Positions 8,631 through 35,677 of a stretch of 47,361 bases of DNA are shown one piece after another. Source of the DNA: Eubacteriales bacterium. Lineage in GTDB: Bacteria > Bacillota > Clostridia > Oscillospirales > CAG-272. Both the position numbers and the translations under genes were made by a program. Each line of letters starts with the position of its first letter. The stretch's first letter is position 1. The stretch lies in contig JAZUQN010000158.1 in NCBI GenBank assembly GCA_045605745.1, forward strand, positions 1-47,361. Reading direction: 5' to 3'. The notes under the pieces are model-generated. The model searched no databases, was not told where the DNA came from, and saw nothing but the letters and a program-made list of their open reading frames with translations.

Positions 8631-8739
8631 ATAAAATCTCTCCCTTCCCGGAGAATTCCACATACATTATATCATCAGCAAAAGAATATGTCAATTTTAT
8701 TTTCAAAAGTCATAAAAAAAACAAAAATTAAACAAACTA

Positions 8740-15010: not shown

Positions 15011-15019
15011 GGGGATAAA

Positions 15020-16852: not shown

Positions 16853-16868
16853 TCGAGAGGAGAAAGAA

Positions 16869-17102: not shown

Positions 17103-17103
17103 A

Positions 17104-19808: not shown

Positions 19809-19835
19809 TCCCGATATTACGATGATAACAAATAA

Positions 19836-19868
19836 AATGGCTGAGACAAAGACTCAGCCATTTTTGAT
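19836..19868 (+). terminator. intrinsic terminator of MBOAT/CotH operon
   Basis: AATGGCTGAG-acaaaga-CTCAGCCATT followed by TTTTGATTTT. Confidence 0.75.
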
Positions 19869-19880
19869 TTTGCTTTGCTA

Positions 19881-20003
19881 AACAGGAGTTTATGGGGAAA
19901 TTGGGGTTTGACAAACAATAGCACACTGCTTTCGTATGCGGTGAGCAATTGCACATAAAAGTTTCGCAGTGTGCTTGCCTATGTTTCCCCGATAAATCAA
20001 AAT
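19881..20003 (+). repeat. intergenic repeat family, copy C (full length)
   Basis: AACAGGAGTTTATGGGG ... GCACACTGC (19921-19929) ... GCAGTGTGC (19966-19974) ... CCCCGATAAATCAAAAT. The ends are imperfect inverted repeats (GTTTATGGGG versus CCCGATAAAT). Confidence 0.7.
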
Positions 20004-20019
20004 TTGTTTGCTTCCGACT

Positions 20020-20051
20020 AAAAGAGGCTGATTCATAAATCAGCCTCTTTT
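20020..20051. terminator. bidirectional intrinsic terminator ending the minus-strand cluster
   Basis: AAAAGAGGCTGATT-cata-AATCAGCCTCTTTT, directly abutting the stop codon at 20055. Confidence 0.8.
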
Positions 20052-20054
20052 ATT

Positions 20055-21155
20055 TTATAATACCTTTTCAAGCCACTCAACCGCTGCTACAACATATTGC
20101 TTCAGTGATTCAGTATTTACCATAACAACAAGTGCTGCCCAAAGCAGATTGTTTATAAGGCTGAAGAACCACTTATTGTGTCTTGCAAAAATATTAACCT
20201 TATATTGGAATCTCTTTACAAGCGATGCCAACTTATTTTCAAGCGTCTTCTTATTAAAATCGACAATATAAAGATACTGCTTTTTGCTCTGCGGATCTTC
20301 AAAGCAAGGTTCATCCTCAATAACAGGATGTCGAATAAGAAAACTGTTAATATCCTTGAAATGGTCCTTGAAATTATCCATTGTATCCGAATCAAAAATG
20401 TTAAGCGCCTTGCCAAGACCGGCAACATACATTCTGATCCTTATCCAGCGAATATAGAAAATTATAAGTGTGATTGCTTTTAGCGCAGGAATAAATGTAA
20501 GGAGCAGACCAAGACTGTTTATGATAAACTCAATTGTGGGCTTTTCTGCTGCTGCAGCAAGCTCGCCCGCAAGCCAAGTGTCAAGAAAATACTTTGCTCC
20601 AAAGAACACCGCTATCAAGGGCAGAATAATTCTGATAAGCACATTGACAAAATGATGTCCGAATTTTGTATTGAACACCTTGGAGTTTTTATCCTTTACA
20701 ACCTCTATCTCCTCATCTCTGCGATTTCTGGTCATCTGACAGTTGATAAAGAAGCTGTCAAGAGTTCCATCAAGAAATGTTTTGTAAAACTCCTCTATAT
20801 CTGCCGGAGTTTCATAATCATCCTCGAAAAAGCTTTTGATAAACCCAACCGGCAAGAGCTCTTCGTTAAATTTCACAAAATAGTTATCGATAATGCGAGT
20901 AGTTACACCATTCAGCTTTTTCGGCTTATCGTGATTGATCATATAATAATACGGATCGTTGTTGAAATAGTCCAAAAATTCTTCATATGTATTTGCATCA
21001 ACACACTTATTCTGCCTTATGCTAAGCAATACATTATCTGATTCGTTGGAATGGCTCTCATATTCATTTCTCGCAATTTTATTATAGAGCCACTTATATG
21101 CCTGCTTCTTGACATAGTTAGTCACTCTGCGATCCCTGGATGTAATCGAGTACAT
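20055..21155 (-). CDS. hypothetical polytopic membrane protein (366 aa), last gene of cluster
   Basis: GAAGGAG RBS. A ~165-aa soluble N-domain is followed by hydrophobic helices (FVNVLIRIILPLIAVFFGA, IINSLGLLLTFIPALKAITLIIFYI, WFFSLINNLLWAALVVMV). I recognise no family motif. Confidence 0.7.
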   Translation of the reverse strand: MYSITSRDRRVTNYVKKQAYKWLYNKIARNEYESHSNESDNVLLSIRQNKCVDANTYEEFLDYFNNDPYYYMINHDKPKKLNGVTTRIIDNYFVKFNEELLPVGFIKSFFEDDYETPADIEEFYKTFLDGTLDSFFINCQMTRNRRDEEIEVVKDKNSKVFNTKFGHHFVNVLIRIILPLIAVFFGAKYFLDTWLAGELAAAAEKPTIEFIINSLGLLLTFIPALKAITLIIFYIRWIRIRMYVAGLGKALNIFDSDTMDNFKDHFKDINSFLIRHPVIEDEPCFEDPQSKKQYLYIVDFNKKTLENKLASLVKRFQYKVNIFARHNKWFFSLINNLLWAALVVMVNTESLKQYVVAAVEWLEKVL

Positions 21156-21204
21156 TTATAATGTCTCCTTCGTTTGTTATTTTTTATACTTTGTTTTTAT
21201 TGCT

Positions 21205-23721
21205 TCATGGAGCTTTTTCTGCTCCGGTATCAGGCGCAGAGGTGCTTTCGGGCGCATCTGTGCTTTCTTCTGTAGATTCTTCAGCTGTTTCATCATTAGC
21301 ATCACTTTCAGGGACACTGTCTAAAGCCTCAGTATCTGTGCCTCTATCAGTGTCTGTGTCAGTTGATATGCCACTGTCATCTCCTCCAAAAAGGTTTTCA
21401 GGCTCTTTCTTTGTATCAGTGCTGATATCCGTTGTGTCAGATTCACTTTCAGAATCTGCTCCGGAAATCACATCCGAAACTGCAGGAGTATCAGTCCCAC
21501 CCACAACGTCGGTATCCTTTGGAGCACCGCCGCCGAAAAGCCCGAATTTGACCACAACAATAGCAACCAAAACAGCCACAATTGCCACGCCCACAACTAT
21601 TGGTGCAATGGGTGCGGATTTTCCAATGACAACCGGAATATCGCTTTTATGTGAGCAATAGTTTTTCCAAACTTTCGATAGCATTTCAGCAAAAGCTTTA
21701 GTGTTTTTGCCGCAATTTCGTGTATCAATGCCGGCAATTCGATTTGTGATGCTATCCGAAAGCGCCTCTGGCATATTTTCAATACCTTTTAGCCTTAGTC
21801 TAACAATATTTGAAACTGCATTTGTGCACGCCAATGCTACTTCAAGCTCAAGATTATCATATGCCTCGCAATTTTCACCGAAGACAAATTTTATAAGCTC
21901 AATCATAACTGCATTTAACGGCAGATATGCAGCCATAAATTTAACAGAGGTAACAAGGTCAATTTTCCCTACCACAAGGGCAACCTGAATTATGAAATCA
22001 CCACCGTGCATCCTGCAAATATCATCAACAATATTCAAATGAGGCGAGTTTTCATCAGGCTTTGCATAAAGAACATACTGCTCAACGGCATTCTTTAAAG
22101 TGTGCTTATCATTTGCAAACAATTTACAAACGTTGCTGAGCGCAACAACAGTGTCAGGTGACTTTGGTGTGTTGAGAGCTTCTCTATATGCGCCAAGCAC
22201 CCTCATCTTCTCCTCGATTGTAACGCCCGTAGGTCTTTCAATCTTTGGAGGATAGGTTTCATTATGCTTTTTAAGATATACGCCTGCCATAGATTTGATG
22301 TAAGGTGCCATATCATAGCCCTTGGCCTTGGCATCCTCCAAGATCTTGCCGCATCCATCAACGAGCCACGCTCTTGCATTTGCAAGCCTGTCATCGGTAA
22401 TATGCTCGTGCGGAACATTAGGACGCTGCATCATATCTGCTACGGTTTTCTCAACATCGTTCTTTAAAGCTTCGATTTCGGCAATTCTGTTTTGCACAGC
22501 CGAAGCCATAGCGTTAAATGCTCTGTAAAACTCAACCTTATAGAAGGCTGCAGAGCTGTCTTCAAGAGGCTTAAAACTGTTTTTCAGCTTTCCGATAAGA
22601 GCATCATCAAGCTTTTGAACCTTAAAAAATTCAACAAAAATATCACGAATAGCTACAAATGCACTTTCCGGACACATCGCACAAAGCTTTTTAATGCCCA
22701 GTGTGTTCTTTTTAAGGAGTGATTGGTGGTCGATCATTTCATCAACACTTCCTATAGAAAACGGCTTAAATCCGTCAAAGTGTCCCGAGAGATTTTGCAA
22801 AACAAAATTCGGTATATCCTTGCTTGTTGGATTTTCCAGAGTGATAAGATACTCATCAAGCAGCTTTTCACAAAGATCAGCATCATTTTTTACATAGGCC
22901 CTGAAAAACTCCACAAACTGCTTTGGCTTATAGTTTGAACCGAAGCCATTGCAAAAGATATCATATTCTGCAAAAAGCTTTCCAACCTCTTCCGCACTAT
23001 CCCTCATCGCTCCAACAAGATGACTGACTATTCCGGTAAATTCCGGAATAACTGCCCCTTCATACGCAGAATCGTTTAAAGGAATCCTGACACCGCTTGC
23101 ATTTTTTGCCAAGCTGAGTGGCAGAATGCGAACTCTGAAGCTTTCAGCATCCGGAACACCTGTTATAAACGAGCAAGATTTTTTAAGAGTCGGCGGCATA
23201 TATCTGAAAAGCTTATACATCAAAATGCGAGCATACTCATTGCTATAAAGCTCGTCACTGACTGCGATAATAATGCTCTCGCCATTATAGATACGAGCAA
23301 GTATTTCAGTTGCAGCCTGAGCCGACATAGGAATATTATCGGAGCCTTTTGCATAGAGCTCTATATCCACTCCGCCAATAGCTCCGGGCATTTCTCCTTG
23401 GCGCAAGGCATCAATCGTGCCCTGCTCTGCAAACATCGCAAGCAAATTTTCTTCAAAATTTTTGCTTTGATAATAGCCTTTGACAGCCTTTTGATATATT
23501 CCGTGGATATAATATGCCTCGCGGTTATAGCTTGTGTCCTTTTTGGCACTAAAGAACAAGGGCTGATTGCTGTTTGCTCCAAAGGTCATAAAGCCATAGG
23601 CATCAATATTTGCATTAATATTAATTTTTATCAGCTCTCTGACTCTTGCCGCCTCATTTTGATCATCGGCAAAGAGCACACCATAGCCATTATTCTTGTC
23701 ACTTCCAAAAATAAATTGCAT
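21205..23721 (-). CDS. hypothetical 838-aa tail-anchored protein with acidic S/T/D-rich C-terminal tail
   Basis: No signal peptide. A ~700-aa mostly helical region is followed by a single TM helix (IAPIVVGVAIVAVLVAIVVV, about 21550-21618). A 114-aa D/E/S/T-rich tail follows (21208-21549). Confidence 0.75.
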   Translation of the reverse strand: MQFIFGSDKNNGYGVLFADDQNEAARVRELIKININANIDAYGFMTFGANSNQPLFFSAKKDTSYNREAYYIHGIYQKAVKGYYQSKNFEENLLAMFAEQGTIDALRQGEMPGAIGGVDIELYAKGSDNIPMSAQAATEILARIYNGESIIIAVSDELYSNEYARILMYKLFRYMPPTLKKSCSFITGVPDAESFRVRILPLSLAKNASGVRIPLNDSAYEGAVIPEFTGIVSHLVGAMRDSAEEVGKLFAEYDIFCNGFGSNYKPKQFVEFFRAYVKNDADLCEKLLDEYLITLENPTSKDIPNFVLQNLSGHFDGFKPFSIGSVDEMIDHQSLLKKNTLGIKKLCAMCPESAFVAIRDIFVEFFKVQKLDDALIGKLKNSFKPLEDSSAAFYKVEFYRAFNAMASAVQNRIAEIEALKNDVEKTVADMMQRPNVPHEHITDDRLANARAWLVDGCGKILEDAKAKGYDMAPYIKSMAGVYLKKHNETYPPKIERPTGVTIEEKMRVLGAYREALNTPKSPDTVVALSNVCKLFANDKHTLKNAVEQYVLYAKPDENSPHLNIVDDICRMHGGDFIIQVALVVGKIDLVTSVKFMAAYLPLNAVMIELIKFVFGENCEAYDNLELEVALACTNAVSNIVRLRLKGIENMPEALSDSITNRIAGIDTRNCGKNTKAFAEMLSKVWKNYCSHKSDIPVVIGKSAPIAPIVVGVAIVAVLVAIVVVKFGLFGGGAPKDTDVVGGTDTPAVSDVISGADSESESDTTDISTDTKKEPENLFGGDDSGISTDTDTDRGTDTEALDSVPESDANDETAEESTEESTDAPESTSAPDTGAEKAP

Positions 23722-23782
23722 ATTTTCCCCTTTCTGTTTGCCAAAGCTAAAATGCTATAGCAAACAATGGTTAATATTATCT

Positions 23783-25366
23783 TTAAATAATACGGTCGGT
23801 TCTGAGGATTCTGAGGAACGGAAGACCTGCAAGGAAACCGTGATGGATTACAGGAGCACCGGCCGAGCCCTCATCTGCCTCTTTTGCCGCATCGCATCCA
23901 TAAGGGGCAACGGGAATAAAATATTTTTCAACTCCTGCTGCGCCCACATTCAAATTGTTAAGAACTCCATAAAGAGCAGGATTCTGCTGCATAAGATATT
24001 GATTGGAAAAATGATTTATCATATCATATTCCTGCTGCTGCCAATTTGAGCCACCAAAGAAGTTGACCTCACTCTTTGTCATAATTACATTGAACATTTG
24101 ATCTGTGTTTGGACGGCCGCGAAGAGCATCAACCTTGTTTGCAACATATATGATACTTCCAAAGCGCTTGCGATCCGGAAAGGACATATGCCAAGCAAGG
24201 CTCTGGCTAAGATCCATAATATTGAAGCGCACGTTTTCCTCGGGTGCCGGCAGCATCTCGTCGATTTGCTCGGGCGGCAGGAAGAACATAACATGACGAG
24301 CACGTGTAATAACTCGTCTGGACTTATAAACATAGTCATCATCGGTACCTGCACCGTTTATAAATTTCTCTCCCGGCCAGTCGATAAAGGAATAGATAGT
24401 GTCTTTAACCTTCAGGTTAAGAATTGGCACATTTTCAAAGTCGGTTTTAACCGGTGCAAGACCTGCATTAAATCTGCCGATATTGTTCATAAACGCATTC
24501 AGGTTAAAATCGTTGGTAAGAGTTGATGTTGCGATCTTCATATCGCTTATAAATGGCTGCTTTGAAAGAACGGTGTTAAGCAGTGCAAGAAGATATGATG
24601 TCTTTCCGGCAGAGTGTGAACCAAGGAGCACAACCGGCTTCATTTTATAATAGCCGAACTCCATTGGAAATTCCTTGCCGCAGAAGCGGCAGCACTTTTT
24701 AAGTCTGCCCCAAACTCCGCCATGCTTAACAAACAGAATATCGGGAACATGATAGCCTTCAATGCCGTTATTACAGGAGCTATAGATGCAAACCTTAAGA
24801 TCAAGGCTGTCTTTTGGCTCTGAGTTCATTCTGTTTTCATAGATGTGGGTGAGAATTTTTATTGCAGTTCTGACAAACTCATCGTCAATACTGATATCTC
24901 CCACAAGCTTATCCGAAACGCCGAAAAGCACATGATAAAGAGTGCTTATCTGAGAAAGCTGAAGAGGAGTTATGCTGCCAAAATTGTTTTCATCAACAGC
25001 ATCCTGAAGCTGATCAAGAATGGCATTAAGCTCTTTAGCGTTATATCCGGATTTTGAAAGTATGTATTCATAAAGGATCTTTCCGTTTACAAGAAATGAG
25101 AAAGCGGTATCATTAAAGCCGGGGCCTCCGGGATTTCCACATTCAAGAAGTTGGGGAGAATCATGCTTATTGGATTTGAGAATAACCTCCTCATCCACAT
25201 AATACTTAAATTTAACCTGTCTCACCGCTTCTTCATCATTTGTATTGTTATAAAGCAGGGGCAAAACATATTCTGACATATCAAAGGCCACATCATAGCC
25301 AAGGAAACGCTCGCCGCAATTAGGGCAAATTATATCATGCATAAATAAACTCCTGTCTGCCGCCAA
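23783..25366 (-). CDS. zinc-ribbon-containing P-loop GTPase (TRAFAC-like motifs)
   Basis: CPNC at codons 14-17 (25316-25327) and CCRFC at 225-229. G1 GSHSAGKTS (24596-24622), G3 DWPG (24371-24382), G4 NKVD (24128-24139). Confidence 0.75.
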   Translation of the reverse strand: MAADRSLFMHDIICPNCGERFLGYDVAFDMSEYVLPLLYNNTNDEEAVRQVKFKYYVDEEVILKSNKHDSPQLLECGNPGGPGFNDTAFSFLVNGKILYEYILSKSGYNAKELNAILDQLQDAVDENNFGSITPLQLSQISTLYHVLFGVSDKLVGDISIDDEFVRTAIKILTHIYENRMNSEPKDSLDLKVCIYSSCNNGIEGYHVPDILFVKHGGVWGRLKKCCRFCGKEFPMEFGYYKMKPVVLLGSHSAGKTSYLLALLNTVLSKQPFISDMKIATSTLTNDFNLNAFMNNIGRFNAGLAPVKTDFENVPILNLKVKDTIYSFIDWPGEKFINGAGTDDDYVYKSRRVITRARHVMFFLPPEQIDEMLPAPEENVRFNIMDLSQSLAWHMSFPDRKRFGSIIYVANKVDALRGRPNTDQMFNVIMTKSEVNFFGGSNWQQQEYDMINHFSNQYLMQQNPALYGVLNNLNVGAAGVEKYFIPVAPYGCDAAKEADEGSAGAPVIHHGFLAGLPFLRILRTDRII

Positions 25367-25399
25367 GGGCGGCTTTTTTTATTTTTACTTAAAAGTTGA

Positions 25400-26062
25400 T
25401 CAGTTTCCTATAAGCGACGAGAGATAAACCACGTCATTTATCTGATTTTTATCAAATTCCTTATCAAGATAATATGTTGAGCCGCCCGGCAGAACCGAAT
25501 AAACCTTTTCGTTGTCAAAGCTGCTGACAATAACTCGGCGTTTGTCGCCGGCATCCTTAAAGGAAAGGGTTTGATAATTCTTTTTAGCCAGCTTGTCAAA
25601 AAGACTTGGCTGTGTGAGATCATATTCTATTTTTTTATCCGGGTCTATGGCAAATACCTTTGGCTCAAAGGATTTTTCGCCGTAAACACAGACTAAAAAC
25701 ACCTTATTGATATCTGTCACCGGGAAGCGCATTTGCTGAACAAAGAATATACCGCCTCCGCTGTTAAGTTGATATTTATTGATCCAGCACTTATTCTGAT
25801 TTGCCGGATTATTATAATAGGCTTCTATATTGCTGATCCTGTTTTGGGGCGATGAAATATCGAACATCTGTCGGTTGATCCACTGTATTATTTCATCCTG
25901 TGTGAAAATAGTGTCACGAAGCAGCTGACTTTCCGGAATAGTACAGCAAAACACTGTACAGCTCGGCAAAGGAGCTCCGTTTTCATATTTCCACTTCCAG
26001 CTCAGATTGACCTCAAGATGATCCTCTGTTGCCCCAGAAGTAACCATTAAATTTTCAAACAT
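25400..26062 (-). CDS. hypothetical protein (220 aa)
   Basis: Clean ORF in the operon with no TM helix or signal peptide. It looks beta-rich and has no motif I recognise. Confidence 0.65.
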   Translation of the reverse strand: MFENLMVTSGATEDHLEVNLSWKWKYENGAPLPSCTVFCCTIPESQLLRDTIFTQDEIIQWINRQMFDISSPQNRISNIEAYYNNPANQNKCWINKYQLNSGGGIFFVQQMRFPVTDINKVFLVCVYGEKSFEPKVFAIDPDKKIEYDLTQPSLFDKLAKKNYQTLSFKDAGDKRRVIVSSFDNEKVYSVLPGGSTYYLDKEFDKNQINDVVYLSSLIGN

Positions 26063-26116
26063 TTATGGGTTCACATCCTTTTTAGTGTATTTATAAGAAA
26101 TGTTCTCTGCTATCGA

Positions 26117-27766
26117 TCAAAACACTAAATATTTACCGATTCTCTGGCTGATATCAACAGAAAACGTACCGCCAACAGAGAAGCTGTATGTATAATCCTT
26201 GCAGAATGAGGGAACAACCGAAAACAGCGGGTCAAAGGAAGATGTTTCGTATGTATACTGTTTTTCGTTTTCAGCCCCAAGCGTGGAAACATATCTGTCA
26301 TAAGCTCCCTTAATAACATTGCATATCTCAAAATCATCTGCCGCATTAATAAGACGGTGAGCTGCAAAGGAAAGGAAGTTGTCCGAATCAATGTTAACAG
26401 CTTTGTTAAAGGCAAGCTCTCTCTTGAGCGAATCAATCTTTCCAAGCATTTCTCTTGAATATGATATCTGAGGCTCAAAACAGGAGGGATTCTGCTCAAT
26501 ATATTCTATAACTTCCTTCCAAAATTCCTGTTTTTTTAGCTCTCCGTCATAATCAATATATCGCCTTATATATTCGGGCAGGTCCACTTCAACATTGTTA
26601 TCGGTCTTGATAAATTGCTGAATTGCGTAATACTTTGCTTCGATCGCCTTTGTGTGAGCTTCGATATAATTATTAAGAAGCATAAGAACTTCGCCATATA
26701 TATTGGGAGAATGATACTGCTTCGCCTTATCAAATATAGATCTCGCAGCCTCAACAACCATAAGCTCGGTGAATCTCTTGTGCATTCGGAGGTTCACCTT
26801 TAAGGTAAGCTCAACAACCTTGTCACCGCCAAATCCGTTTAAATCATAGCACTGATTGAAATAATTTTGCAGGCACATCTCTTCGCTGACCTTAACGGTT
26901 GTAACACGGGGGATCATTTTAACTGCGTGCTCAAGTCTGCGCATCAGCGCCGTATTATCTGTTACATTCACCTGTCTATAGAAAAACTCATCGCAGAACG
27001 CTGTAATATCGACCTTATTAAACGGAGCTGCATTGCAATACAGCTTATACACATAATATCGCAAAAAGTCCATTTTATCATCATTATATGATGCTGAGAG
27101 AGTTGACCAGAATATTTCCTCTCTTGCTTCCATCTCTTTTTTGCCCTCTTCGGGAAAAGCGAGAATATTAGCCTCAACCAAGCTGTTTGTGGCACTGAAA
27201 TTCATTTCTACGCTTTGTCCGATACGCTTTGAGTGGTTAAGAAGAAGAGCACCGCAAATGTTATCAATAATCTTCGATTCTTGATGTTTTCTTTTTGCAA
27301 AAGCATAAATACGTACCCTCTCGGAAAGTCCTTTGCCCTCAAGCGCTCTCATATAGGAGCCGGCTTTTTCCTTATCCTCAGGCATAGTAAGTGCAAGCAT
27401 CAGTCGGTCGCCATGCTCCATAAAGCCACCGCTTGATAGTGTCTTCACAGCCAGGGAAACCGCCTCGGATATATCATTATCCTCATAATCAAACACGAGA
27501 ACAAAGCAGGTACTTGTATGCTGACCAAAACGGTATGCCGGTCTTTGACGGAGATAGTCGCCAAGACCGCTGTCACCTGCTGCACTAAGCTCAAAATCAG
27601 CTTTATCAAATGCATTTTTGCTGATATAATGCTCAACGCTGCCCTGCAGCTGACCGCTATAATAAGCATCCTTTGCAAAATTCAAAAGAACTATATAATA
27701 ATTCTCATCAGCGTTAAAGCTGCCTGCCCCAACGCCAAAAACATTTCCATATAATTTACTAAACAT
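26117..27766 (-). CDS. hypothetical protein (549 aa); possible degenerate tubulin-like N-domain
   Basis: Clean ORF. The N-terminus NVFGVGAGS ... CFVLVFDYEDND has strand-loop spacing like the T1/T4 elements of the neighbouring tubulin-like protein but lacks the glycine signature. This is speculative. Confidence 0.65.
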   Translation of the reverse strand: MFSKLYGNVFGVGAGSFNADENYYIVLLNFAKDAYYSGQLQGSVEHYISKNAFDKADFELSAAGDSGLGDYLRQRPAYRFGQHTSTCFVLVFDYEDNDISEAVSLAVKTLSSGGFMEHGDRLMLALTMPEDKEKAGSYMRALEGKGLSERVRIYAFAKRKHQESKIIDNICGALLLNHSKRIGQSVEMNFSATNSLVEANILAFPEEGKKEMEAREEIFWSTLSASYNDDKMDFLRYYVYKLYCNAAPFNKVDITAFCDEFFYRQVNVTDNTALMRRLEHAVKMIPRVTTVKVSEEMCLQNYFNQCYDLNGFGGDKVVELTLKVNLRMHKRFTELMVVEAARSIFDKAKQYHSPNIYGEVLMLLNNYIEAHTKAIEAKYYAIQQFIKTDNNVEVDLPEYIRRYIDYDGELKKQEFWKEVIEYIEQNPSCFEPQISYSREMLGKIDSLKRELAFNKAVNIDSDNFLSFAAHRLINAADDFEICNVIKGAYDRYVSTLGAENEKQYTYETSSFDPLFSVVPSFCKDYTYSFSVGGTFSVDISQRIGKYLVF

Positions 27767-27821
27767 ATAAATACACCAAGCCTTTAGGCAAATTAAAAAT
27801 TCAGATAAAAATCAAGTGAGA

Positions 27822-28538
27822 TTAAATGATATTTACAAAATCCATAAGTGAGAAATTGCAGAAAAATCTGAATATATATGAATTTTCTGCAAGAGAAGAA
27901 AGAAGCGCATTATATTGTTCTATAAGTCCATATTCAACAACGACGCTAAGCGCAAGGCAGATGATCCATGTGTAAGCAAATGCACTGATAACTCCAAGAA
28001 CAAAGCCAAGAATACCATTTGCCTGTTTAAGCACAGGAAGCTTAACAAGTCCGCCCACAATTATCTTAACGATGATCATAGCAATGTAAGCGGCGACAAA
28101 TACAAGCACACATCCGATAGCAGAAGCAAGTGTCTCTGCAACCGGAAGAGCAATTTCATTTGCAAAATTTTCAAGGTCCGCCTCTGTAGCAACGGTCATT
28201 TTGCCAAAAACAGCTTTAAGAGCATCGATGTTTGCGCCTGTTCTGTCGAGAAGATCAACAAAGCCCTCCGGGAGCTTTTCAAACAGATCGCTTATGCTGA
28301 GAGCTCCGTCGCCTTCACCCATAAGCTTTTTTAGAAGTCCCTTTACAACCCCTGTTACGTGGCTCTGAAGAGGCTCACCAAGAAAAAGCCTGCCAACCTT
28401 TGGGCCAAACAAATATGCCGAAGCAAAGGTTACAACGGTTGTTAGAAGATTCAAAATTGTTTTGCATCCTCTTTTGGTGTTGACAAATATCACAAGCAGT
28501 ATAAATGCCACCAAAATAATATCAAGAATCCAGTTCAT
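27822..28538 (-). CDS. CvpA family membrane protein
   Basis: MNWILDIILVAFILLVIFVNTKRG is a typical CvpA N-terminus, and the protein has four or five TM helices. AAAGGAG RBS precedes the ATG at 28538, so the track start at 28628 is rejected. Confidence 0.7.
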   Translation of the reverse strand: MNWILDIILVAFILLVIFVNTKRGCKTILNLLTTVVTFASAYLFGPKVGRLFLGEPLQSHVTGVVKGLLKKLMGEGDGALSISDLFEKLPEGFVDLLDRTGANIDALKAVFGKMTVATEADLENFANEIALPVAETLASAIGCVLVFVAAYIAMIIVKIIVGGLVKLPVLKQANGILGFVLGVISAFAYTWIICLALSVVVEYGLIEQYNALLSSLAENSYIFRFFCNFSLMDFVNII

Positions 28539-28561
28539 GAGAAGCTCCTTTCGATTGTGTA

Positions 28562-28598
28562 TGTCAAAAAATCTATAAAATCGGCACAGAATGCCGAA
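28562..28598 (-). terminator. weak terminator-like hairpin upstream of the cvpA-like gene
   Basis: On the minus strand: TCGGCA-ttctg-TGCCGA followed by TTTTATAGATTTTTT. The stem is only 6 bp. Confidence 0.3.
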
Positions 28599-28697
28599 TT
28601 TTATCCTAATCAATATCAAATTTAACAAGGATTCGCGGCATGGCGCTTTTACAAAAGCACAATATCGCCAAGCCTTATTTTTCCTTAATTACGCTTA

Positions 28698-28728
28698 CTC
28701 CTACAGGCGCAAAATGCGCCTGTAGGAG
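28698..28728 (-). other. 14-bp GC-rich stem-loop just downstream of the tubulin-like gene
   Basis: CTCCTACAGGCGCA-aaa-TGCGCCTGTAGGAG with no U-tract on either strand. It could be an RNA processing or stability element, or a partial terminator. Confidence 0.5.
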
Positions 28729-28761
28729 ATGAACGTAATTATTGATCGGCAAAAATCAATA

Positions 28762-31700
28762 TTAGAATGCAAACAGCTTCATAATATCTGTAACTGCCTT
28801 GAGTATCTCGCCATAGAATTCCTTGCGAGCCTCTTCTTCCTTTGTAAGGATGTTACCGTTGAGGCGTCTTGTCTCAACAGCACCGATAATGGTGTCACAG
28901 CGATTCTTGATATTATCATAAGATGTCTTCAGAGTTTCGTAAGCAGCATCGTCGCCGTTTGCGATATTTCTCTGAATTGTCTTAACTCTCTCATCAAGCA
29001 GAGCCTTGTGCTCCTTATAGCTTTCAAGCTTAACCATAGCATCGCAAACAGCCATTTCCATATATTCAACCTGCCAAGCAATGCTGTTATTATCCTGAAC
29101 ATCAAACATAGAAACGATGTTATAAGGAGTATCGCCAAGCTTATATTTCCATGCGCCTCTCTCAGCAAATACAAGTCCGAAGAGCATATATTTTGCAAGA
29201 TCACGGCGTGTGGACATACCAACACGAATGTCATCAGCAGCCTTAACGGGCTTGAGGAAGTTTTCTTTATAATATTCAACCTCATCCTCGAGAGCACGGA
29301 GCAGCTTCATCTGGTTGCGGAGCAGGCAAACTGCTGTTTCCTCATCTGCAGCTGCATTACCAACCCTGCCAATGATATGACGCTCTTCGCATTCAAAGCT
29401 TGCCTTGATCTTAGCAAAGAGGTTCTTGTCGATCATAATATTGCCCTTTTCATCTGTGTTTGAAGGATCCTCGATATACTTCTTAACAAACACATCAATA
29501 GTTACAAGGCTGCGTCCGTCCGAAACATTGGGCTTGTTCTTAATAAGGTTAACTATCCAAGTTCCAACATCGCTCTGACTGATAATACCGTGTCTCTTTG
29601 CATACTTAACAACCGCTCTAACATTATCCATAAGCTTTGTTTCGGAAGCGTTTGAATATTCGATTGCCCCCTGTCTTGTGCGGAACCACTGACTGGGTAC
29701 CATAAGAGCAGGATAATCCTTCATAGCAGGCTTTGTTGCAGCGTGCTCGTTGATATGAACTCCGGGCATATCCAGCTTATTATACTGCTCCTCATATTCG
29801 ATAAGGTCTGCATGGATCCAGATAGGCATCTTAGCATAGAGAGTGTAGCTATAGATAGCGTTCTGGTCAGGACTCCAGTAAATATTCTTATTGTTGTCTG
29901 TCTTAACAAACAGATCGTTAAACTTAGTACCCCAGCCGGAAGCGTCTGCCTCGGCATTGAAGCCATCGGGAAGAACGAGATACTGATAGCAAAGAGGAGC
30001 AACGTGCTTAAACTCAAAGTGAGGAGTTTCCCAAACATTGCACATAGGAGCAGCGTTATAATTGATAACATTGATAAGTCTCTGAATAACTGTCTCCTTA
30101 TATGCATCGGTCTGACCTGCATAAGCCTCATCAAAATAGTCGATCATCTTTCTGTTGACCACATCAGAGAATGGCTCATAATTCTTTATGAACTTACGGA
30201 ATGCCTCAGCAGCCTTTGACATACCGGGAGGGCAATTGTCGGTGAGCTGCCATGCAGCACGGTTGTTGATTATCTCATATGTAAGAGCAGCAGCAAACTG
30301 TGCAGGTGCATTTTCGCCAAGTCTTCTCATCTTTGAGGAAACAGTGTTCATAACAGAGCTCTTGAGTGCATCAAACTCGGGATCTGTAAGACTAAAGATG
30401 CTTGTGGGATCCTTTTCTGCAGTCTCGCTGAGCTTAGCTGATGCAGTAACAGCATTTTCAGCGAGGATATCGTTGATCTTAGAGAAGATATCAACGCAGC
30501 CAAGATAATCACGGTCGAGGCTAAGCTTAACTCTATAAGCAACGCCGCGAGCCTTGTTAAGGTCAACATAGTATTCAGCGATAAGAGAATCGCAAAGTCT
30601 AATCTTAAATCTTGTTACAAATGTATCCTTGAGAAGCGACTTAAAGCTATCAAGATTGCTGTTAAATTTACCAAGCTTCTGCATAGTCTGAGCAAGCTCA
30701 AGTCTCTGGCGATCATGCTCTGCCAAGGTCTGCTCATATCTTGCCTTCAGCGCAACTGCAGCATCTGCATAGCCGATAAGCTTTTCATAGAAGCCCTGAA
30801 CATTTCCGCCGCTCTTAGAATTTGTTGTAAGAAGCTTTTCGAGATAGTATGGACCCTTCTGAGGATCTGCATAGATAAGACCTGCTCTTCTGTTTGCCTC
30901 TGCAACGATCTGCTCGATAGTGCTGTTGTCTTTATCAAAGGCTTCAATAGCCTTAGTAACCTCTGCCTCAAGGGGAACTGTGTGCTCATTTGTGAGAATA
31001 GAGCCCTTTGTCCATCTTGTGTCAGCATCGGAATGAATGTTGTCGATAACGGCAGCAAGTCTTCTTGCGCAAGTTTCGATAACATCGCTGGGCTTAATAA
31101 GACCACTTTCAAAAGCATCAACATCAGCCTGTGTCAGGCTCTGAACGTTAGCCTTCAGCAGTGCATTTGCCTTCTTGCCCATTTCGCCAACAAGCTGCTC
31201 GATAATAGCCTCTGTTGGGAACTTGATGGAGGAAGCACCGATAAGGTTATAGTGGTAGTTTCCGTATTCCGGGAAATGAACATCGGGATTCTTCATAACT
31301 GTGCTGAGAGCTGTTGCTGTGTTTACATGGAAGGAGCCGGCTGTAAAGAAGTCGGTGATAGAACCGCTCTTGTCGCCGTCGATCTTACCTTTAACACTTG
31401 TACACTGGTTAACAAGGTCCTCAACGCAAACGGAAATAGCCTTTTCTTGAGGATCTGTCATAACGATAGCACCTGCGATCTTACCGCCAACAAGTGTGCA
31501 CTGAGTGAAGATAGGATCCTGAGAAGAAAATTCGCCAACAGGTTCCGGATAGAGAGCATCAAATGTCTCGCCTGAGGTCTTGAGGTTCATGTAATAGTCA
31601 ATCTCCTTGAGTGCCGCATAACCGTTTCTGTAAGCAGCTTCCTTATTGGAGATTCCGCTATAGGAGTTAGGAAGATATACATGACCGAACAGACGGAGCT

Positions 31701-32334
31701 TATTTCCGGGGATACCCAGATCTCTGACAACTGCTCTAACGATATAAGGAACGTCGATAACAAGACCACTTCCGCTACCGCCGCCGATACCTGCAACAAC
31801 GTGTACATCGAGAGTTGTTGTGCTGAAGTCCTTAAGGTGGGAGATTGCGTTTCTTATAGAGTTATAGATGTCTCCGAAGAGGTTAAGATCCATAACTGTG
31901 AGACGGCCTGCAAGTCTAACCTGGTTCGCACCGATACCTGTAAGTGCCTGTGTAAAGCCCTCGGGAATAATAGAACCGATGGGCTTAGGACGAAATTCAT
32001 TCTTTGCAGCAAGAATGCTTCCAACAGCACTGTTATCGAGCAAAGGAATTTCGGTTGTTGTCAGAAGACCGGACTTGATAGCCTTTTCACGATCCTCCTT
32101 GTCGGTATCAAGAGAAAGTACGCTAAGAAAACCTGGGTCGATCTTACCGAGACGGTCATTAAGCTCTCTCTTAAGTCTGAGAGTTGTCTTAAGACCCATA
32201 CCTCCAAGACCGATTACGAGAATACGGGAAGTGTGGTTGCCTGTGAAACCGCCTTCCTTTTCGATGACGCCCATAGAATTAACGTCAAGTTCTTTGAGTT
32301 CATTAAGAGAACTCTCGCTAAAGTACATTGGCAT
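28762..32334 (-). CDS. giant tubulin/FtsZ-like GTPase domain protein (1190 aa)
   Basis: T1-like GLGGMG (32194-32211), T2-like LDTD (codons 75-78; compare FtsZ NTD), and T4 signature GIGGGSGSG (31765-31791; compare tubulin GGGTGSG and FtsZ GGGTGTG). These lie within a Rossmann-like strand pattern (RILVIGLGG.., DVHVVAGIGGG..). An ~850-aa helical extension follows. Confidence 0.8.
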   Translation of the reverse strand: MPMYFSESSLNELKELDVNSMGVIEKEGGFTGNHTSRILVIGLGGMGLKTTLRLKRELNDRLGKIDPGFLSVLSLDTDKEDREKAIKSGLLTTTEIPLLDNSAVGSILAAKNEFRPKPIGSIIPEGFTQALTGIGANQVRLAGRLTVMDLNLFGDIYNSIRNAISHLKDFSTTTLDVHVVAGIGGGSGSGLVIDVPYIVRAVVRDLGIPGNKLRLFGHVYLPNSYSGISNKEAAYRNGYAALKEIDYYMNLKTSGETFDALYPEPVGEFSSQDPIFTQCTLVGGKIAGAIVMTDPQEKAISVCVEDLVNQCTSVKGKIDGDKSGSITDFFTAGSFHVNTATALSTVMKNPDVHFPEYGNYHYNLIGASSIKFPTEAIIEQLVGEMGKKANALLKANVQSLTQADVDAFESGLIKPSDVIETCARRLAAVIDNIHSDADTRWTKGSILTNEHTVPLEAEVTKAIEAFDKDNSTIEQIVAEANRRAGLIYADPQKGPYYLEKLLTTNSKSGGNVQGFYEKLIGYADAAVALKARYEQTLAEHDRQRLELAQTMQKLGKFNSNLDSFKSLLKDTFVTRFKIRLCDSLIAEYYVDLNKARGVAYRVKLSLDRDYLGCVDIFSKINDILAENAVTASAKLSETAEKDPTSIFSLTDPEFDALKSSVMNTVSSKMRRLGENAPAQFAAALTYEIINNRAAWQLTDNCPPGMSKAAEAFRKFIKNYEPFSDVVNRKMIDYFDEAYAGQTDAYKETVIQRLINVINYNAAPMCNVWETPHFEFKHVAPLCYQYLVLPDGFNAEADASGWGTKFNDLFVKTDNNKNIYWSPDQNAIYSYTLYAKMPIWIHADLIEYEEQYNKLDMPGVHINEHAATKPAMKDYPALMVPSQWFRTRQGAIEYSNASETKLMDNVRAVVKYAKRHGIISQSDVGTWIVNLIKNKPNVSDGRSLVTIDVFVKKYIEDPSNTDEKGNIMIDKNLFAKIKASFECEERHIIGRVGNAAADEETAVCLLRNQMKLLRALEDEVEYYKENFLKPVKAADDIRVGMSTRRDLAKYMLFGLVFAERGAWKYKLGDTPYNIVSMFDVQDNNSIAWQVEYMEMAVCDAMVKLESYKEHKALLDERVKTIQRNIANGDDAAYETLKTSYDNIKNRCDTIIGAVETRRLNGNILTKEEEARKEFYGEILKAVTDIMKLFAF

Positions 32335-32362
32335 AGCTTATTACCTCCGAAGTATATTTAAA

Positions 32363-34915
32363 TTAAAAATAGCTTTCTGTTTGCTGGAATGCGTGGCTGT
32401 TTCCGAATGTGAGAGTGTAGTTTCCATCAAAGGTTCTCACAGAGACATTGCCGGATTTAAAGATATGAACGCGGGGAGCCTTCTTTTTATTGGTGGGATC
32501 CTTTGAAATGATCTTAAATGACTTTTTAAAAGGAATACCTGTTAAGGTTATGTTATCTGCATAGCTTTCGATAAAGGTTCTCAGGTCATTTTCATTCATA
32601 GTTCCGTATTGAGGATTACTGTAACCGGGAGTTGTGAGTATTTGTCTCATAGACATAACAGGCTTTGAGTTTTTCTTGCCGGAAAGTCTTGGAATAGCAT
32701 ATACAACCTCGGTTGTCTGATATGATTCACCGTCAACTTTTTCAAGCTTGATCTTAAAGGCCATGGAAATGATCTTTTTGTGGTTGACGAAGAGAAATGC
32801 GAGAACCGCAAGGACTGCAAGAACCAAAACCACAACGATTATTGTAACCAGCACCGGAACAAGAGACTTAACCGACACCTTAATTGTATAAACATACTCT
32901 GCGCCGTCACCATCGGTCACAATAAGGGAAATAATACTTGAACCGAAATCACCGGACTTGATTGTAAGCTTTTCACCTGTAATGCTTGCAGTGATAGCAG
33001 AATCGCCCTCAAGCTTAACATTATAGCTAAGCGGATCTCCGTCAGAATCGCTGAATATACCTGCAAAATCGATTATCTCTTCAAAGCTGCCGGAGAACGC
33101 ACTCTTCTCTATCTTATTCTTGAGAGTTCCGTTCATGCGAATCTGAGAAGCGATAAAGTCTATCTCAACGGCCTCAGACTCAACAGCGACAACATCAAGA
33201 TGACCAACCTTAGCCTTAAAGGTATACTTACCTACCGAAGCAGGAATATATGACTGAACATACTCTCCGCCCTCAAACCGAGCCATATCGATATCGATCT
33301 TTTCAACCTCTGCGCCGTCCTTTGAAACGACAAGTGTCAGATTCTGAGAGGTGATATAGGCCGGGATCGAAGCAGAAGCCGAGCCTGTCACAGGGTCAAC
33401 GAATTTGAGAGAAACATCAGGGTCACCCTCAACATCGGGGTCGTTCACAGCAGAAACAACAAGCTTAGGTCCAACAACATTAATGTTGGCCTCACTCACT
33501 ATCTCATACTGAGAATGCTTTAAAAGTGTCTTTATAACATATTCACCGGGAGCAGCAAAATCCAGCTCGTAAACATATCCGTTTCCGTTTTTATTGAGAG
33601 TTCCGTTAACGGTTTTCTCATTGCCGCCGCCAACCAAGTGATAAATAACACTTGAAGAAGCACCCTCGTCAGGAGAATAAAGACCAACAGAATCAAGATG
33701 GATATTGTTTTCGGAATTATAAAGTGTGGCTTCAAAGCCAAACTTGTTGCCCACATATACATCATCTGCAGGAATGTTATCACGAACAGCAAGGCCGAAA
33801 AGGAATATCTTTCTTTCGATAACAGTGCTTTGCTCACCTGTTACAAGCACCTTCCAATCTCCGCCCTCGGGAGCAAGGAGCTTAACGGTTGCAGAATGTG
33901 CCATGCCTGTATAGTTTACAATGCAAAGATCCTTTTCGATTTTGTTCTTTGTAGGATTCTCAATGTCAATATCAGCAACAACATTTCCTGCAGGGTTCAA
34001 AACCTTTATGGTCTTGAGACGAGCACCGCTGGAAAGACTGATATTAGCTTCTTTAACTGCATTTGCGTAAATATTTATAACACGCTCTGATACCTCGCTT
34101 GGAGAAACAGCAAAGGATTCCTTATCCTCATCCAGCTTGGTATTCTCAAAGAGGTATGTATATATCTCCGAAAAAGCATCCGAGATCTGATTTGCATTTT
34201 CGATTATCTTTATGTTATTAGTCTTATCAACGCTGTCAACGCCGTGAAGCTTTGCAAGAAAGCTCTTGTCAATATTTCCCTTTCCTCCTGCATCAAGACC
34301 GATAGAATAAAGCTGAACTCCGGCATCCTTAAGCTTTGTGGCACTTGCAAAGGCTTTGTTTTCAGAAGCTTTCTCGGCAGCAGCACCTTCCTTAAGGTCT
34401 ATCTTTCCGTCCGTAAAGAGGATAACCGCCTTCTTCTCGCAATTTGAAGAAGAGAGAATTGCATTGGCTGCGCTGTCAAGAGCAAGACCGATATCGGTAT
34501 AGGAAACATAATTCCAGCAAGCAATTCCGGGAACAAGGTCTTGGCCTGCAGCATTATCCTTGTCATTTTTATCAAGGAGAATATCCTGCATATACTGCAT
34601 ATATTCGCCAAGGCCGCTCTCCTCGGAGACATTCACCTTATCAAGAACGGTGCATATCTCGTGATGATAGGGGATGATCTTTACATACATATTCGTCTGA
34701 GGGGAGCAGTTGAAAACAAACTGCTGCGCCGCCTCAACAGAAAGACGGCCTCCCGATTCTGTTAGAGGATCCGAATATCTTGCCATCGATCCGCTGACGT
34801 CGAAAAGCAAAACCACCTCAACATCATCAGAAGCTTCTGCCGCAATAGGAAGTGCCATACACACAAGCACTGCCGCAAACAGGATTAAACAGGCGATTTT
34901 TCTAAAGTGATTCAT
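32363..34915 (-). CDS. secreted vWA (MIDAS) domain protein with Ig-like repeats, one TM helix and a 140-aa cytoplasmic tail
   Basis: Signal peptide MNHFRKIACLILFAAVLVCMALPIAAEA. MIDAS DVSGS (34787-34801) and ILFTDGK. A long beta-rich region is followed by the TM helix LVPVLVTIIVVVLVLAVLAVLAFLFV (about 32786-32863) and the tail (32366-32785). Confidence 0.8.
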   Translation of the reverse strand: MNHFRKIACLILFAAVLVCMALPIAAEASDDVEVVLLFDVSGSMARYSDPLTESGGRLSVEAAQQFVFNCSPQTNMYVKIIPYHHEICTVLDKVNVSEESGLGEYMQYMQDILLDKNDKDNAAGQDLVPGIACWNYVSYTDIGLALDSAANAILSSSNCEKKAVILFTDGKIDLKEGAAAEKASENKAFASATKLKDAGVQLYSIGLDAGGKGNIDKSFLAKLHGVDSVDKTNNIKIIENANQISDAFSEIYTYLFENTKLDEDKESFAVSPSEVSERVINIYANAVKEANISLSSGARLKTIKVLNPAGNVVADIDIENPTKNKIEKDLCIVNYTGMAHSATVKLLAPEGGDWKVLVTGEQSTVIERKIFLFGLAVRDNIPADDVYVGNKFGFEATLYNSENNIHLDSVGLYSPDEGASSSVIYHLVGGGNEKTVNGTLNKNGNGYVYELDFAAPGEYVIKTLLKHSQYEIVSEANINVVGPKLVVSAVNDPDVEGDPDVSLKFVDPVTGSASASIPAYITSQNLTLVVSKDGAEVEKIDIDMARFEGGEYVQSYIPASVGKYTFKAKVGHLDVVAVESEAVEIDFIASQIRMNGTLKNKIEKSAFSGSFEEIIDFAGIFSDSDGDPLSYNVKLEGDSAITASITGEKLTIKSGDFGSSIISLIVTDGDGAEYVYTIKVSVKSLVPVLVTIIVVVLVLAVLAVLAFLFVNHKKIISMAFKIKLEKVDGESYQTTEVVYAIPRLSGKKNSKPVMSMRQILTTPGYSNPQYGTMNENDLRTFIESYADNITLTGIPFKKSFKIISKDPTNKKKAPRVHIFKSGNVSVRTFDGNYTLTFGNSHAFQQTESYF

Positions 34916-34977
34916 TAAACTGATTCCTTTCGTTTGTTTGAGCTAAAATTTGATATGCTGAAAATGGTATAAAATCC

Positions 34978-35005
34978 GCTCGTTTTTGAAAATTTAAAAA
35001 CGAGC
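34978..35005 (-). promoter_or_regulatory. terminator-like hairpin inside the 5' leader of the cluster
   Basis: On the minus strand: GCTCGTTTTT-aaattttc-AAAAACGAGC followed by GGATTTTAT. It lies between the promoter and the vWA start codon. Confidence 0.4.
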
Positions 35006-35031
35006 AAGGTTTCATACAATTATTATTCAAT

Positions 35032-35061
35032 ATTATATCATACAATTCCACTATTTGTCAA
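35032..35061 (-). promoter_or_regulatory. SigA-type promoter of vWA/tubulin-like cluster
   Basis: On the minus strand: TTGACA (35056-35061), 18-nt spacer, TGaTATAAT (-10 at 35032-35037). Confidence 0.55.
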
Positions 35062-35263
35062 TAGAAAATCGTCATTTGGGGACATTATTTTCCTTACTTT
35101 TACATCTATAGTGAATTTTAAACAATTTCTTTCTCTCATTTTCGACAATCCAAACAACAAATTTGCATAAAAATTCATTTTTCACTATTTCTTTTGCTTA
35201 TGCTTTTGAAATACATAAAAAAGCCGATATAATTACAGCAGCCAATAAATGTTATCAAAACTA

Positions 35264-35292
35264 TTGACAAAGAGTTTTTTGTGTGCTATACT
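35264..35292 (+). promoter_or_regulatory. SigA-type promoter of T-box/trpB
   Basis: TTGACA (35264-35269), 17-nt spacer, TGcTATACT (35287-35292). Confidence 0.6.
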
Positions 35293-35298
35293 ACACTA

Positions 35299-35584
35299 AA
35301 CCGATGAGGAAGAATAGTAGCCATATTTAGCTTTGCATAGAGAACTGCCGACGGTGGAAGGGCAGTGAAAGCACTGTGGTGAATGGACTTTCGAGGGTGG
35401 ATCGAGGTGCGGAGAGAGCGGCTTTCTTTCCTATCGCGTAGACTCCAACGGCGGCTATCCGTTATCAAGAGCAGGCATATGATCGTATGCAAAAAGAGAG
35501 CTTCTTTTGAAGCTAAGTTCGGGTGGCACCGCGGATTTTGATTATTCGTCCCGAGTATCCTTTGATACTCGGGATTTTATATTT
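35299..35584 (+). promoter_or_regulatory. T-box leader, tryptophan-specific (specifier UGG)
   Basis: Stem I GA motif GATGAGGAAGAATAGTA, the AGAGA box (35339-35343), and specifier-loop GAA-TGG-A (UGG at 35384-35386). The T-box sequence is AAGTTCGGGTGGCACCGCGG (35515-35534). The terminator is CCCGAGTATC/GATACTCGGG plus ATTTTAT (35549-35584). Confidence 0.85.
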
Positions 35585-35677
35585 CGGAGGTTTTTGATAT
35601 GATCCTTGACAGGCGATGGCGAGCTTTTTAAAGCAACCCTAAAGCAACTTTTTCAAGAATTTTGGAGGATAATGATC

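Follow-up and report, generated by a model that had tools for sequence, protein, structure and literature searches.

The closest described systems to the gene cluster studied here are known from comparative genomics. The cluster lies on contig JAZUQN010000158.1 (assembly GCA_045605745.1) of an uncultured gut Clostridia bacterium. We analyzed positions 1 to 47,361 of this contig, a stretch of 47,361 nucleotides (nt) that we call the window. Eight co-directional genes occupy positions 20055-34915 on its minus strand, with a sigma-A promoter at one end and a terminator hairpin at the other; they are numbered g1 to g8 from the promoter end. Makarova & Koonin (2010) defined the tubulin-like FtsZl1 proteins and their operons, and proposed that they act in membrane remodelling as a membrane-associated complex (PMC2875224). 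These operons contain a vWA protein with an intact metal ion-dependent adhesion site (MIDAS) and a signal peptide/transmembrane (TM) segment, lineage-specific TM proteins, and a diverged GTPase that has both Walker motifs (A and B) plus a TxKD-type signature, sometimes fused to a DnaJ-like Cys-rich domain. FtsZl1 coexists with normal FtsZ (PMC2875224).

Kaur, Burroughs, Iyer & Aravind (2020) named the DO-GTPases, which have a Walker-B Glu and one or two N-terminal zinc ribbons, and whose downstream partner is GAP1 (PMC7159879). GAP1 of the GAP1-N2 type has three globular domains and is encoded directly downstream of the DO-GTPase. Among the GAP1-N2 systems is a Firmicutes tubulin theme, with two tubulin/coiled-coil genes, two vWA proteins, of which one carries YtkA and the other is multi-TM and exposes its vWA domain outside, a GAP1 with a polar C-terminal extension, and a protein with rapidly evolving FNIII repeats. 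The authors ascribed fast evolution to sensor components and predicted that tubulin-theme systems are biological-conflict systems acting near the membrane; their supplement gives organisms, not loci (PMC7159879). In a 2023 phylogeny the Tubulin_2 proteins form an uncharacterised divergent outgroup, and a 2024 paper still describes DO-GTPases as "predicted" to act in membrane-related stress.

The window cluster very probably belongs to this published FtsZl1-vWA-GTPase/GAP1-N2-type DO-GTPase class, of which it is a single-tubulin, CvpA-containing version. An original prediction, made from the DNA letters, had put it forward as a candidate undescribed system; that claim has to be withdrawn, as the combination was already defined in 2010 and 2020. 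The system type itself is not newly discovered here, and the locus alone does not make the function of the class newly testable. Our analysis adds a compact seven-gene core in gut Clostridia, with a second tubulin, CvpA, and a subtilase as optional parts. It also adds a predicted topology with three proteins that have external parts, a high-confidence model of the GTPase, and four partner families (g4, g5, g7, and g8) without Pfam or PDB relatives. The genes present and their synteny, the protein folds and predicted topology, and how fast the proteins evolve relative to one another are reported below as observations.

Conservation of the cluster

We gathered loci by searches seeded with g2, g6, and g7, and then read their gene contexts. 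About 20 independent loci have the same order: a vWA gene, one or two Tubulin_2 genes, an optional CvpA gene, g4, g5, the GTPase, g7, and g8. The seven-gene core consists of a vWA protein with immunoglobulin (Ig)-like repeats, a Tubulin_2 protein, unknown proteins of ~550 and ~220 amino acids (aa), a DO-GTPase-like GTPase, a bitopic protein of ~800 aa, and a protein with three TM helices. All loci come from uncultured Clostridia-type metagenome-assembled genomes (MAGs; Eubacteriales, Ruminococcus, Defluviitaleaceae, and Turicibacter), and the flanking genes are different in every genome. The arrangement is therefore not a chance juxtaposition. The eight genes had been proposed as a unit, and their homologues indeed co-occur in order across these genomes with unrelated flanks. 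The membership of the cvpA-like gene and of the last gene had been left in doubt; we can now assign g8 to the core and describe CvpA as a recurrent optional member.

The proteins of the cluster diverge at very different rates. Mean identity to the window proteins is 46% for g6, 42% for g2, 33% for g1, 25% for g4, and 20% for g7. The fastest-evolving members are g7 and g4, with conservation in g7 limited to its first ~200 residues; g1, too, has diverged more quickly than the enzymes. A pattern scan found the g6-type GTPase in about 13 of 185,579 species representatives, and no g6 homologue was found in plasmid, phage, or IMG/VR collections. The very divergent locus L032 still holds the vWA/Ig protein, tubulin, GTPase, and g8 together. 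Eight distant Tubulin_2 loci from other phyla (L005-L012) contain none of the other seven families and therefore represent different operon types.

Several loci depart from the layout of the window. A second tubulin gene is present in three loci (L004, L017, and L018), all directly syntenic with the window. In L004, from Turicibacter, two additional genes lie between g5 and the GTPase gene: a 172-aa open reading frame (ORF) and a gene at 16219-18810 (+) for an 863-aa protein in which N-terminal TM helices accompany a Peptidase_S8 subtilase domain (E = 1e-44). The subtilase could be a proteolytic processing or effector component. In L028, from Defluviitaleaceae, two g7 paralogues lie on either side of g8 at 11618-13237 (540 aa) and 14537-16471 (645 aa) on the plus strand; both lengths are of stop-to-stop ORFs. 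In L017, six more co-directional genes of 112-833 aa follow the cassette at 15851-21758 (+). None has a Pfam match, and they may be an extension of the system. In L032, g8 is followed by a gene at 15729-19094 (+) for a 1121-aa GAP1-N2 protein, which has no TM helix and ends in a ~140-aa polar tail, and then by an HTH_3/TPR regulator gene at 19136-20218 (+). A g7-like protein and a true GAP1-N2 protein thus coexist in L032.

The tubulin-like protein and the GTPase

The original prediction read the 1190-aa g2 product as an FtsZ/tubulin-like protein, and this is borne out. It matches Tubulin_2 (PF13809) with 139.6 bits (cut-off 27; E = 2e-40), with residues 39-388 aligned to positions 1-353 of the 356-position model. 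All syntenic g2 homologues match this family as well, and the g2 paralogues of L004 also match PF00091. The T1 motif GLGGMG (residues 42-47) and the T4 motif GGGSGSG (184-190) are invariant in 6 homologues. A search of the PDB with the g2 family profile gave FtsZ as the best match via T1 and T4, both collinear on FtsZ 9v7v. None of these profile searches placed the protein outside the FtsZ/tubulin fold. A further block, NGYAALKExD (237-246), is invariant and is a candidate T7-type catalytic segment. Pfam detected neither an FtsZ_C nor a Tubulin_C domain. Beyond the GTPase domain lie ~800 aa of helical/coiled-coil sequence, without a TM helix or a family match. GTP-dependent polymerisation of g2 is plausible, because the fold and the T1 and T4 motifs are common to FtsZ/tubulin GTPases.

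The g6 GTPase matches DO-GTPase2 (PF19993) with 24.7 bits (E = 2e-5), slightly short of the 27-bit cut-off. A match to the same model is precomputed for about 20 of 71 g6 homologue clusters, and the L017 homologue likewise matches DO-GTPase2. The protein has a Walker A motif (GSHSAGKT), a Walker B motif (DWPGE), NKVD, and two CxxC knuckles. CPxC, CCRxC, GSHxxGKTS, DWPGE, and NKxD are invariant in 29 sequences of the family, which across its 71 clusters also keeps a C-terminal PVAPYG...GLPLL motif. The two CxxC pairs (C6/C9 and C218/C221, in the 519-aa numbering) are ~210 residues apart, and each lies in or beside a beta-hairpin in the AlphaFold2 (AF2) model. This model has a predicted local distance difference test score (pLDDT) of 87.5. 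A Foldseek search returned 169 matches at E <= 1e-3, all of them TRAFAC G domains, over ~250-300 residues; the N-terminal module of ~230 residues between the knuckles had no structural match in this search. The modelled protein is confirmed as a TRAFAC-class GTPase fold, and its earlier description as a 527-aa zinc-ribbon GTPase holds as a Zn-knuckle GTPase.

Membrane-spanning proteins and partner families

The g1 protein begins with a signal peptide, followed by a vWA domain with a DVSGS MIDAS, Ig-like beta-sandwich repeats (residues ~270-690), and a TM helix (692-710); the signal peptide, MIDAS, and TM helix are as expected of the secreted vWA/MIDAS type-I membrane protein first proposed. 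By TM prediction and composition, it ends in a basic cytoplasmic tail of ~140 aa. The VWA_2 score of the window protein is 18.4 bits, below the Pfam cut-off of 27; its homologues pass the VWA threshold. The remaining Pfam matches of g1 are Big_9, a faint YtkA (E = 0.39), and a faint Filamin. Big_9, Filamin, and TIG matches spread over g1 and its homologues correspond to the Ig-like repeats of the ectodomain. The synteny of g1 is kept in about 15 loci. No second vWA protein was found among the eight families by Pfam or profile comparison.

The g7 protein has a cytoplasmic part of ~700 aa, then a TM helix at 705-723. The final 115 aa form an acidic, Ser/Thr-rich tail (32 Asp/Glu, 31 Ser/Thr), which contains few Lys/Arg and is therefore predicted to lie outside the cell. 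The protein had been described as a tail-anchored protein with an acidic tail; the acidic tail is present, but 115 aa beyond the helix mean that the protein is not strictly tail-anchored. The TM helix and the acidic tail are kept in every full-length homologue examined. An AF2 model with a mean pLDDT of 66 has an alpha/beta N-terminal region and two helical regions. The g7 gene is always directly downstream of the GTPase gene. A profile search against the PDB gave compositional matches only.

The last gene, g8, is found after g7 in nearly all loci whose sequence reaches that far. It had been described simply as a polytopic membrane protein. We do predict about three TM helices, a hairpin and a third helix, but they are preceded by a conserved soluble cytoplasmic N-domain of ~165 aa that the earlier description missed. 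Two long homologues, in L022 (11631-13358, +) and L023 (14077-16002, +), carry a C-terminal F5/8-type-C discoidin domain (E = 9.8e-9). This domain lies past the last TM helix, so that the g8 C-terminus is predicted to be external and glycan-facing. A SLATT-type pore effector was considered for g8 and rejected: no SLATT domain was found by Pfam in 16 members, and two carry the external discoidin domain instead. Profile comparison of g8 with the PDB gave compositional matches only.

The remaining genes lie between the tubulin and the GTPase. CvpA-family proteins are membrane-integrity factors. The g3 product matches Colicin_V (PF02674) with 46.4 bits against a cut-off of 29.3 (E = 5e-12) and has 3 predicted TM helices, in keeping with its first assignment to the CvpA family. 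A CvpA gene is found at this position in the window and in seven of the other loci retrieved, namely L014/L015, L019, L022, L023, L025, and L030, and is missing in L001, L002, L016, L020, L027, and L028. The g4 gene in every locus sits between the tubulin (or CvpA) gene and g5. The g5 gene is always upstream of the GTPase gene, with the two additional genes in between in L004, and its product keeps WxW, YS, and P motifs. Pfam gave no match for either protein in any of 16 members per family, and searches of the PDB by profile gave compositional matches only. An all-against-all comparison of the eight family profiles found both to be unrelated to the other families of the cluster. We also asked whether g4 could be a degenerate second copy of the tubulin or of the vWA protein, and rejected this: hhalign against the tubulin family gave a probability of 0.6%, and no hidden paralogy appeared across the eight profiles.

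Locus layout and transcription signals

The features of the cluster are listed in Table 1.

Table 1. Genes and transcription signals of the cluster, in window coordinates
Feature	Position	Strand	Basis
g1, 850 aa, vWA type-I membrane protein	32363..34915	-	Pfam, TM prediction, synteny
g2, 1190 aa, FtsZl1/Tubulin_2 GTPase domain and long extension	28762..32334	-	Pfam Tubulin_2
g3, 238 aa, CvpA/Colicin_V membrane protein, optional member	27822..28538	-	Pfam and synteny
g4, 549 aa, cytoplasmic, conserved core member	26117..27766	-	Synteny
g5, 220 aa, cytoplasmic, conserved core member	25400..26062	-	Synteny
g6, 519 aa from Met9, TRAFAC GTPase of DO-GTPase2 type	23783..25342	-	Pfam, motifs, AF2/Foldseek
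g7, 838 aa, bitopic protein at the GAP1 position	21205..23721	-	Synteny, TM prediction, AF2
g8, 366 aa, membrane protein, core member	20055..21155	-	TM prediction, synteny
Sigma-A type promoter, TTGACA / 18 nt with TG / TATAAT	35032..35061	-	Sequence; function inferred
12-bp hairpin with U-rich tail, g1 5' leader	34976..35007	-	Terminator-like scan and sequence
Perfect 13-bp hairpin without T-run, directly past the g2 stop codon	28698..28728	-	Sequence
Terminator-like hairpin with T-run in the g2-g3 gap, just before the g3 ribosome-binding site	28581..28597	-	Scan and sequence
15-bp palindromic terminator hairpin adjoining the g8 stop	20019..20052	.	Scan and minus-strand reading

The coordinates and lengths of the eight ORFs were exactly as first given, with intergenic spacings of 28, 133, 55, 54, 33, 61, and 49 nt as the ORFs were called. 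Two starts were revised. The g3 start was moved to the ATG at 28538-28536, which has an AAAGGAG ribosome-binding site ahead of it; the resulting 238 aa match the homologue lengths of 236-239 aa, and the g2-g3 gap becomes 223 nt, the value originally reported. Met9 is most likely the start of g6, because the public gene call uses it and 29 of 29 aligned homologues begin MHDIICP. The GC content of the cluster is 38-45%, the same as in the remainder of the window.

The strong promoter proposed upstream of g1 is, read from 35061 to 35032, the sole 12/12 consensus match within 19700-35700 (16 kb) and has an extended TG. The hairpin in the g1 leader sits ~18 nt past the predicted transcription start and could serve as an attenuator in the leader or protect the 5' end of the mRNA; an Rfam scan gave no family for it, and none anywhere inside the cluster. 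The T-run hairpin between g2 and g3 may be an internal attenuator, and the two hairpins of this gap together might set unequal expression of the first two genes and the rest. At the far end, the hairpin does adjoin the g8 stop, and it had been called a bidirectional terminator. Its long T-run lies on the plus strand; the minus strand has 4 U after a 10-bp GC-containing core. Because of this short run the terminator is bidirectional in a weak sense only: as read from its sequence, it is a strong terminator for the convergent plus-strand gene and a weaker one for the cluster.

In the window, the cluster is flanked by chromosomal housekeeping and envelope genes. The neighbourhood at 7143-8663 (-), 13595-16852 (+), and 18129-19808 (+) holds two genes of the CotH kinase family together with MBOAT acyltransferase and polysaccharide deacetylase genes, all of envelope/spore-coat type; DUF6056 is a further envelope-type neighbour. 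Glutamine synthetase III of the window has its best identity among the species representatives, 66-67%, to uncultured gut Eubacteriales MAGs. On the other side of the cluster, a T-box leader (RF00230) at 35295-35556 (+) scores 110 bits against a gathering threshold of 93 and is followed by a terminator hairpin at 35548-35575. It precedes a plus-strand gene for a pyridoxal phosphate-dependent enzyme (35606-36898), is divergent from the cluster promoter, and is unrelated to the cluster.

Proposed mechanism and alternative explanations

The best explanation of the whole, which we regard as fairly probable, is a cassette of the published class that combines a membrane sensor, a GTPase switch, and a sub-membrane polymer. 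In this mechanism, g1 would be the sensor, with its MIDAS vWA domain and Ig-like repeats outside and its basic ~140-aa tail inside. The g7 protein would span the membrane with its acidic Ser/Thr-rich tail outside and ~700 aa inside, and g8 would span it with its conserved N-domain in the cytoplasm and, in some relatives, a sugar-binding discoidin domain outside. In the cytoplasm, g6 and g7 would make up a nucleotide-gated switch. We consider this pair the likely switch because Kaur et al. reported co-evolution and adjacency (PMC7159879) and the two genes are adjacent in every locus here. The switch would permit the giant g2 to assemble into, or disassemble from, a polymer beneath the membrane, with g4 and g5 as family-specific adaptors and the CvpA-like g3 as an optional membrane accessory. 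The output would be an altered envelope or membrane state when something outside is sensed, for example phage, a competitor, or damage to the wall. What we infer is every contact between the proteins, which way the signal runs, that g2 polymerises, and what the cassette does for the cell. Taken by itself, the general sensor-switch-polymer logic has slightly better than an even chance of being correct. A role specifically in conflict or defence is a tentative proposal that we put somewhat below even.

Several observations weigh against this explanation or parts of it. Whereas the Kaur tubulin theme has two tubulin and two vWA genes, only one of each is present in the window. FN3 is absent from the Pfam matches, and that theme includes an FNIII-repeat protein. 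No recognisable toxic effector (nuclease, TIR, or SLATT) was found in the cluster, and the loci are flanked by housekeeping and envelope genes, without defence islands. PADLOC-DB 2.0 and PHROGs gave only a faint sub-threshold LeoA match to the g6 P-loop (14.9 bits, E = 0.0026). An NCBIfam search of the cluster proteins gave nothing useful. The cluster as a single transcription unit is a prediction, with two hairpins in the g2-g3 gap. Finally, a predicted function for this architecture exists in the literature but not a tested one: we found no experimental study of any class member in the literature searched, as the original prediction had supposed.

The identity of g7 also counts on this side. 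Pfam GAP1 models miss g7 (at E <= 10) and all 54 of its relatives (at E <= 0.01), which a profile search run exhaustively over 1.84 billion representatives had recovered. The models do work on a positive control, as the 1121-aa protein of L032 passes GAP1-N2 (PF20013) with 34.8 bits against a cut-off of 24. Aligning the g7 family with this control by hhalign gave a probability of 0.6%, and GAP1-N2 in L032 is a separate gene after g8; because of these two results, g7 is possibly a distinct family. There is a weak motif match, in which g7 131-191 is collinear with residues 164-243 of the control, and a broadened N-terminal hidden Markov model scores 7.8 bits (E ~1e-4 in a one-sequence search). 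We rejected g7 as a canonical GAP1, since Pfam was negative for g7, the 54 relatives, and the syntenic homologues, and Foldseek matched generic helical repeats only. It is GAP1-like by position and architecture, and a putative homologue.

The most serious alternative, which we still think unlikely, is a housekeeping machine: a membrane-remodelling, vesicle-forming, or surface-structure-positioning cytoskeleton. Its FtsZ-like polymer would give the membrane shape or order, its vWA/Ig protein would anchor the polymer to the wall or matrix, and in these Clostridia it might have a link to envelope biogenesis or differentiation. A machine of this kind was predicted for FtsZl1 operons in 2010 (PMC2875224), and the 2024 paper predicts that DO-GTPases act in membrane-related stresses. 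Membrane remodelling is kept alive by the lack of a toxic effector domain and of a defence-island context and by the envelope-type neighbours (MBOAT, polysaccharide deacetylase, CotH, and DUF6056); the cluster also encodes four membrane proteins. The membrane-integrity function of the CvpA family fits this picture too. However, a presence in about 13 of 185,579 species representatives is very sparse and patchy, which would be unusual for housekeeping, and the flanks change from genome to genome. The surface-exposed and GAP1-like parts evolve fast, and the accessory genes vary (the L004 subtilase, the L028 g7 duplication, and the L032 HTH regulator), more as in an accessory or conflict module. 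It is because of this sparse distribution, the changing flanks, the fast divergence of g7, g4, and g1, and the variable accessory genes that we lean toward an accessory or conflict role within the sensor-switch-polymer cassette.

A more specific form of that role is an immune or surveillance device, for which we see a lesser chance still, roughly one in four. External ligand capture by g1 and by the g7 and g8 tails would act through the DO-GTPase/GAP1-like switch on a g2 polymer as the effector, and the polymer might keep phage from entering or assembling, or might bring the cell to arrest. If true, it would be the first case in which bacteria use a tubulin-superfamily polymer as an immune effector, and four new protein families (g4, g5, g7, and g8) would belong to this device alone. 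To our knowledge, FtsZl1/Tubulin_2 is the largest branch of the tubulin superfamily without a known function, and has been since 2010. The locus offers a minimal construct for work on GTP-gated polymerisation, protection against phage or competitors, and membrane remodelling.

It is very improbable that the cluster is two or three unrelated co-oriented operons, for example a vWA and tubulin operon, cvpA, and a GTPase block. The 223-nt gap with two hairpins after g2, the promoter-like hexamers near g3, and the optional nature of the CvpA gene would fit such a division. However, across about 20 loci with unrelated flanks, at identities of 20-65%, the order of the seven core genes and their tight spacing are retained, and even L032 keeps the vWA/Ig, tubulin, GTPase, and g8 genes together.

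A divergent division FtsZ or a TubZ/PhuZ DNA-segregation system, already doubted in the original prediction, can practically be dismissed: the tubulin-superfamily GTPase fold of g2 with its T1 and T4 motifs is the sole point in its favour, whereas g2 is of the Tubulin_2 type with an 800-aa extension in place of FtsZ_C or Tubulin_C, the cluster has no FtsA, SepF, Min, TubR, or centromere partners, FtsZl1 coexists with normal FtsZ (PMC2875224), and the chromosomal housekeeping flanks and the lack of GTPase homologues in plasmid, phage, and IMG/VR collections agree with a locus that is neither phage- nor plasmid-borne.

Comparison with known systems

The sensor-switch-polymer cassette can be set beside the MoxR-vWA ternary conflict systems (PMC7159879), which it resembles in logic: an NTPase switch, a vWA partner, and a fast-evolving third component proposed as an invader sensor. 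It differs from them in having no AAA+ MoxR, a TRAFAC switch instead, an extracellular vWA, and no enzymatic effector.

The FtsZl1 operons are much closer in gene content (PMC2875224). As in the window, FtsZl1 has as neighbours a vWA protein with an intact MIDAS, a diverged GTPase bearing a Cys-rich module, and several TM proteins. Unlike them, the window has no OmpA-family or protein-kinase partner, and counterparts of g4, g5, g7, and g8 were not resolved in the 2010 paper.

The Kaur tubulin theme (PMC7159879) has its own differences from the window. The zinc ribbons described there are compact and two in number, whereas the g6 site is made of two CxxC knuckles ~210 residues apart. In contrast to the described GAP1, g7 is not recognised by the GAP1-N2 model, and its polar tail is preceded by a TM helix. 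The g4, g5, and g8 genes and the optional CvpA gene are unnamed in the text of that paper. The likenesses run through most of the cluster: a GTPase of the DO-GTPase2 type whose Walker B holds a Glu and whose zinc knuckles are N-terminal, a tubulin with a long helical or coiled-coil C-terminus, a vWA protein with Ig/YtkA-like domains, numerous TM segments, domains outside the cell, and, directly after the GTPase, a g7 protein that shares both the position and the polar tail of GAP1.

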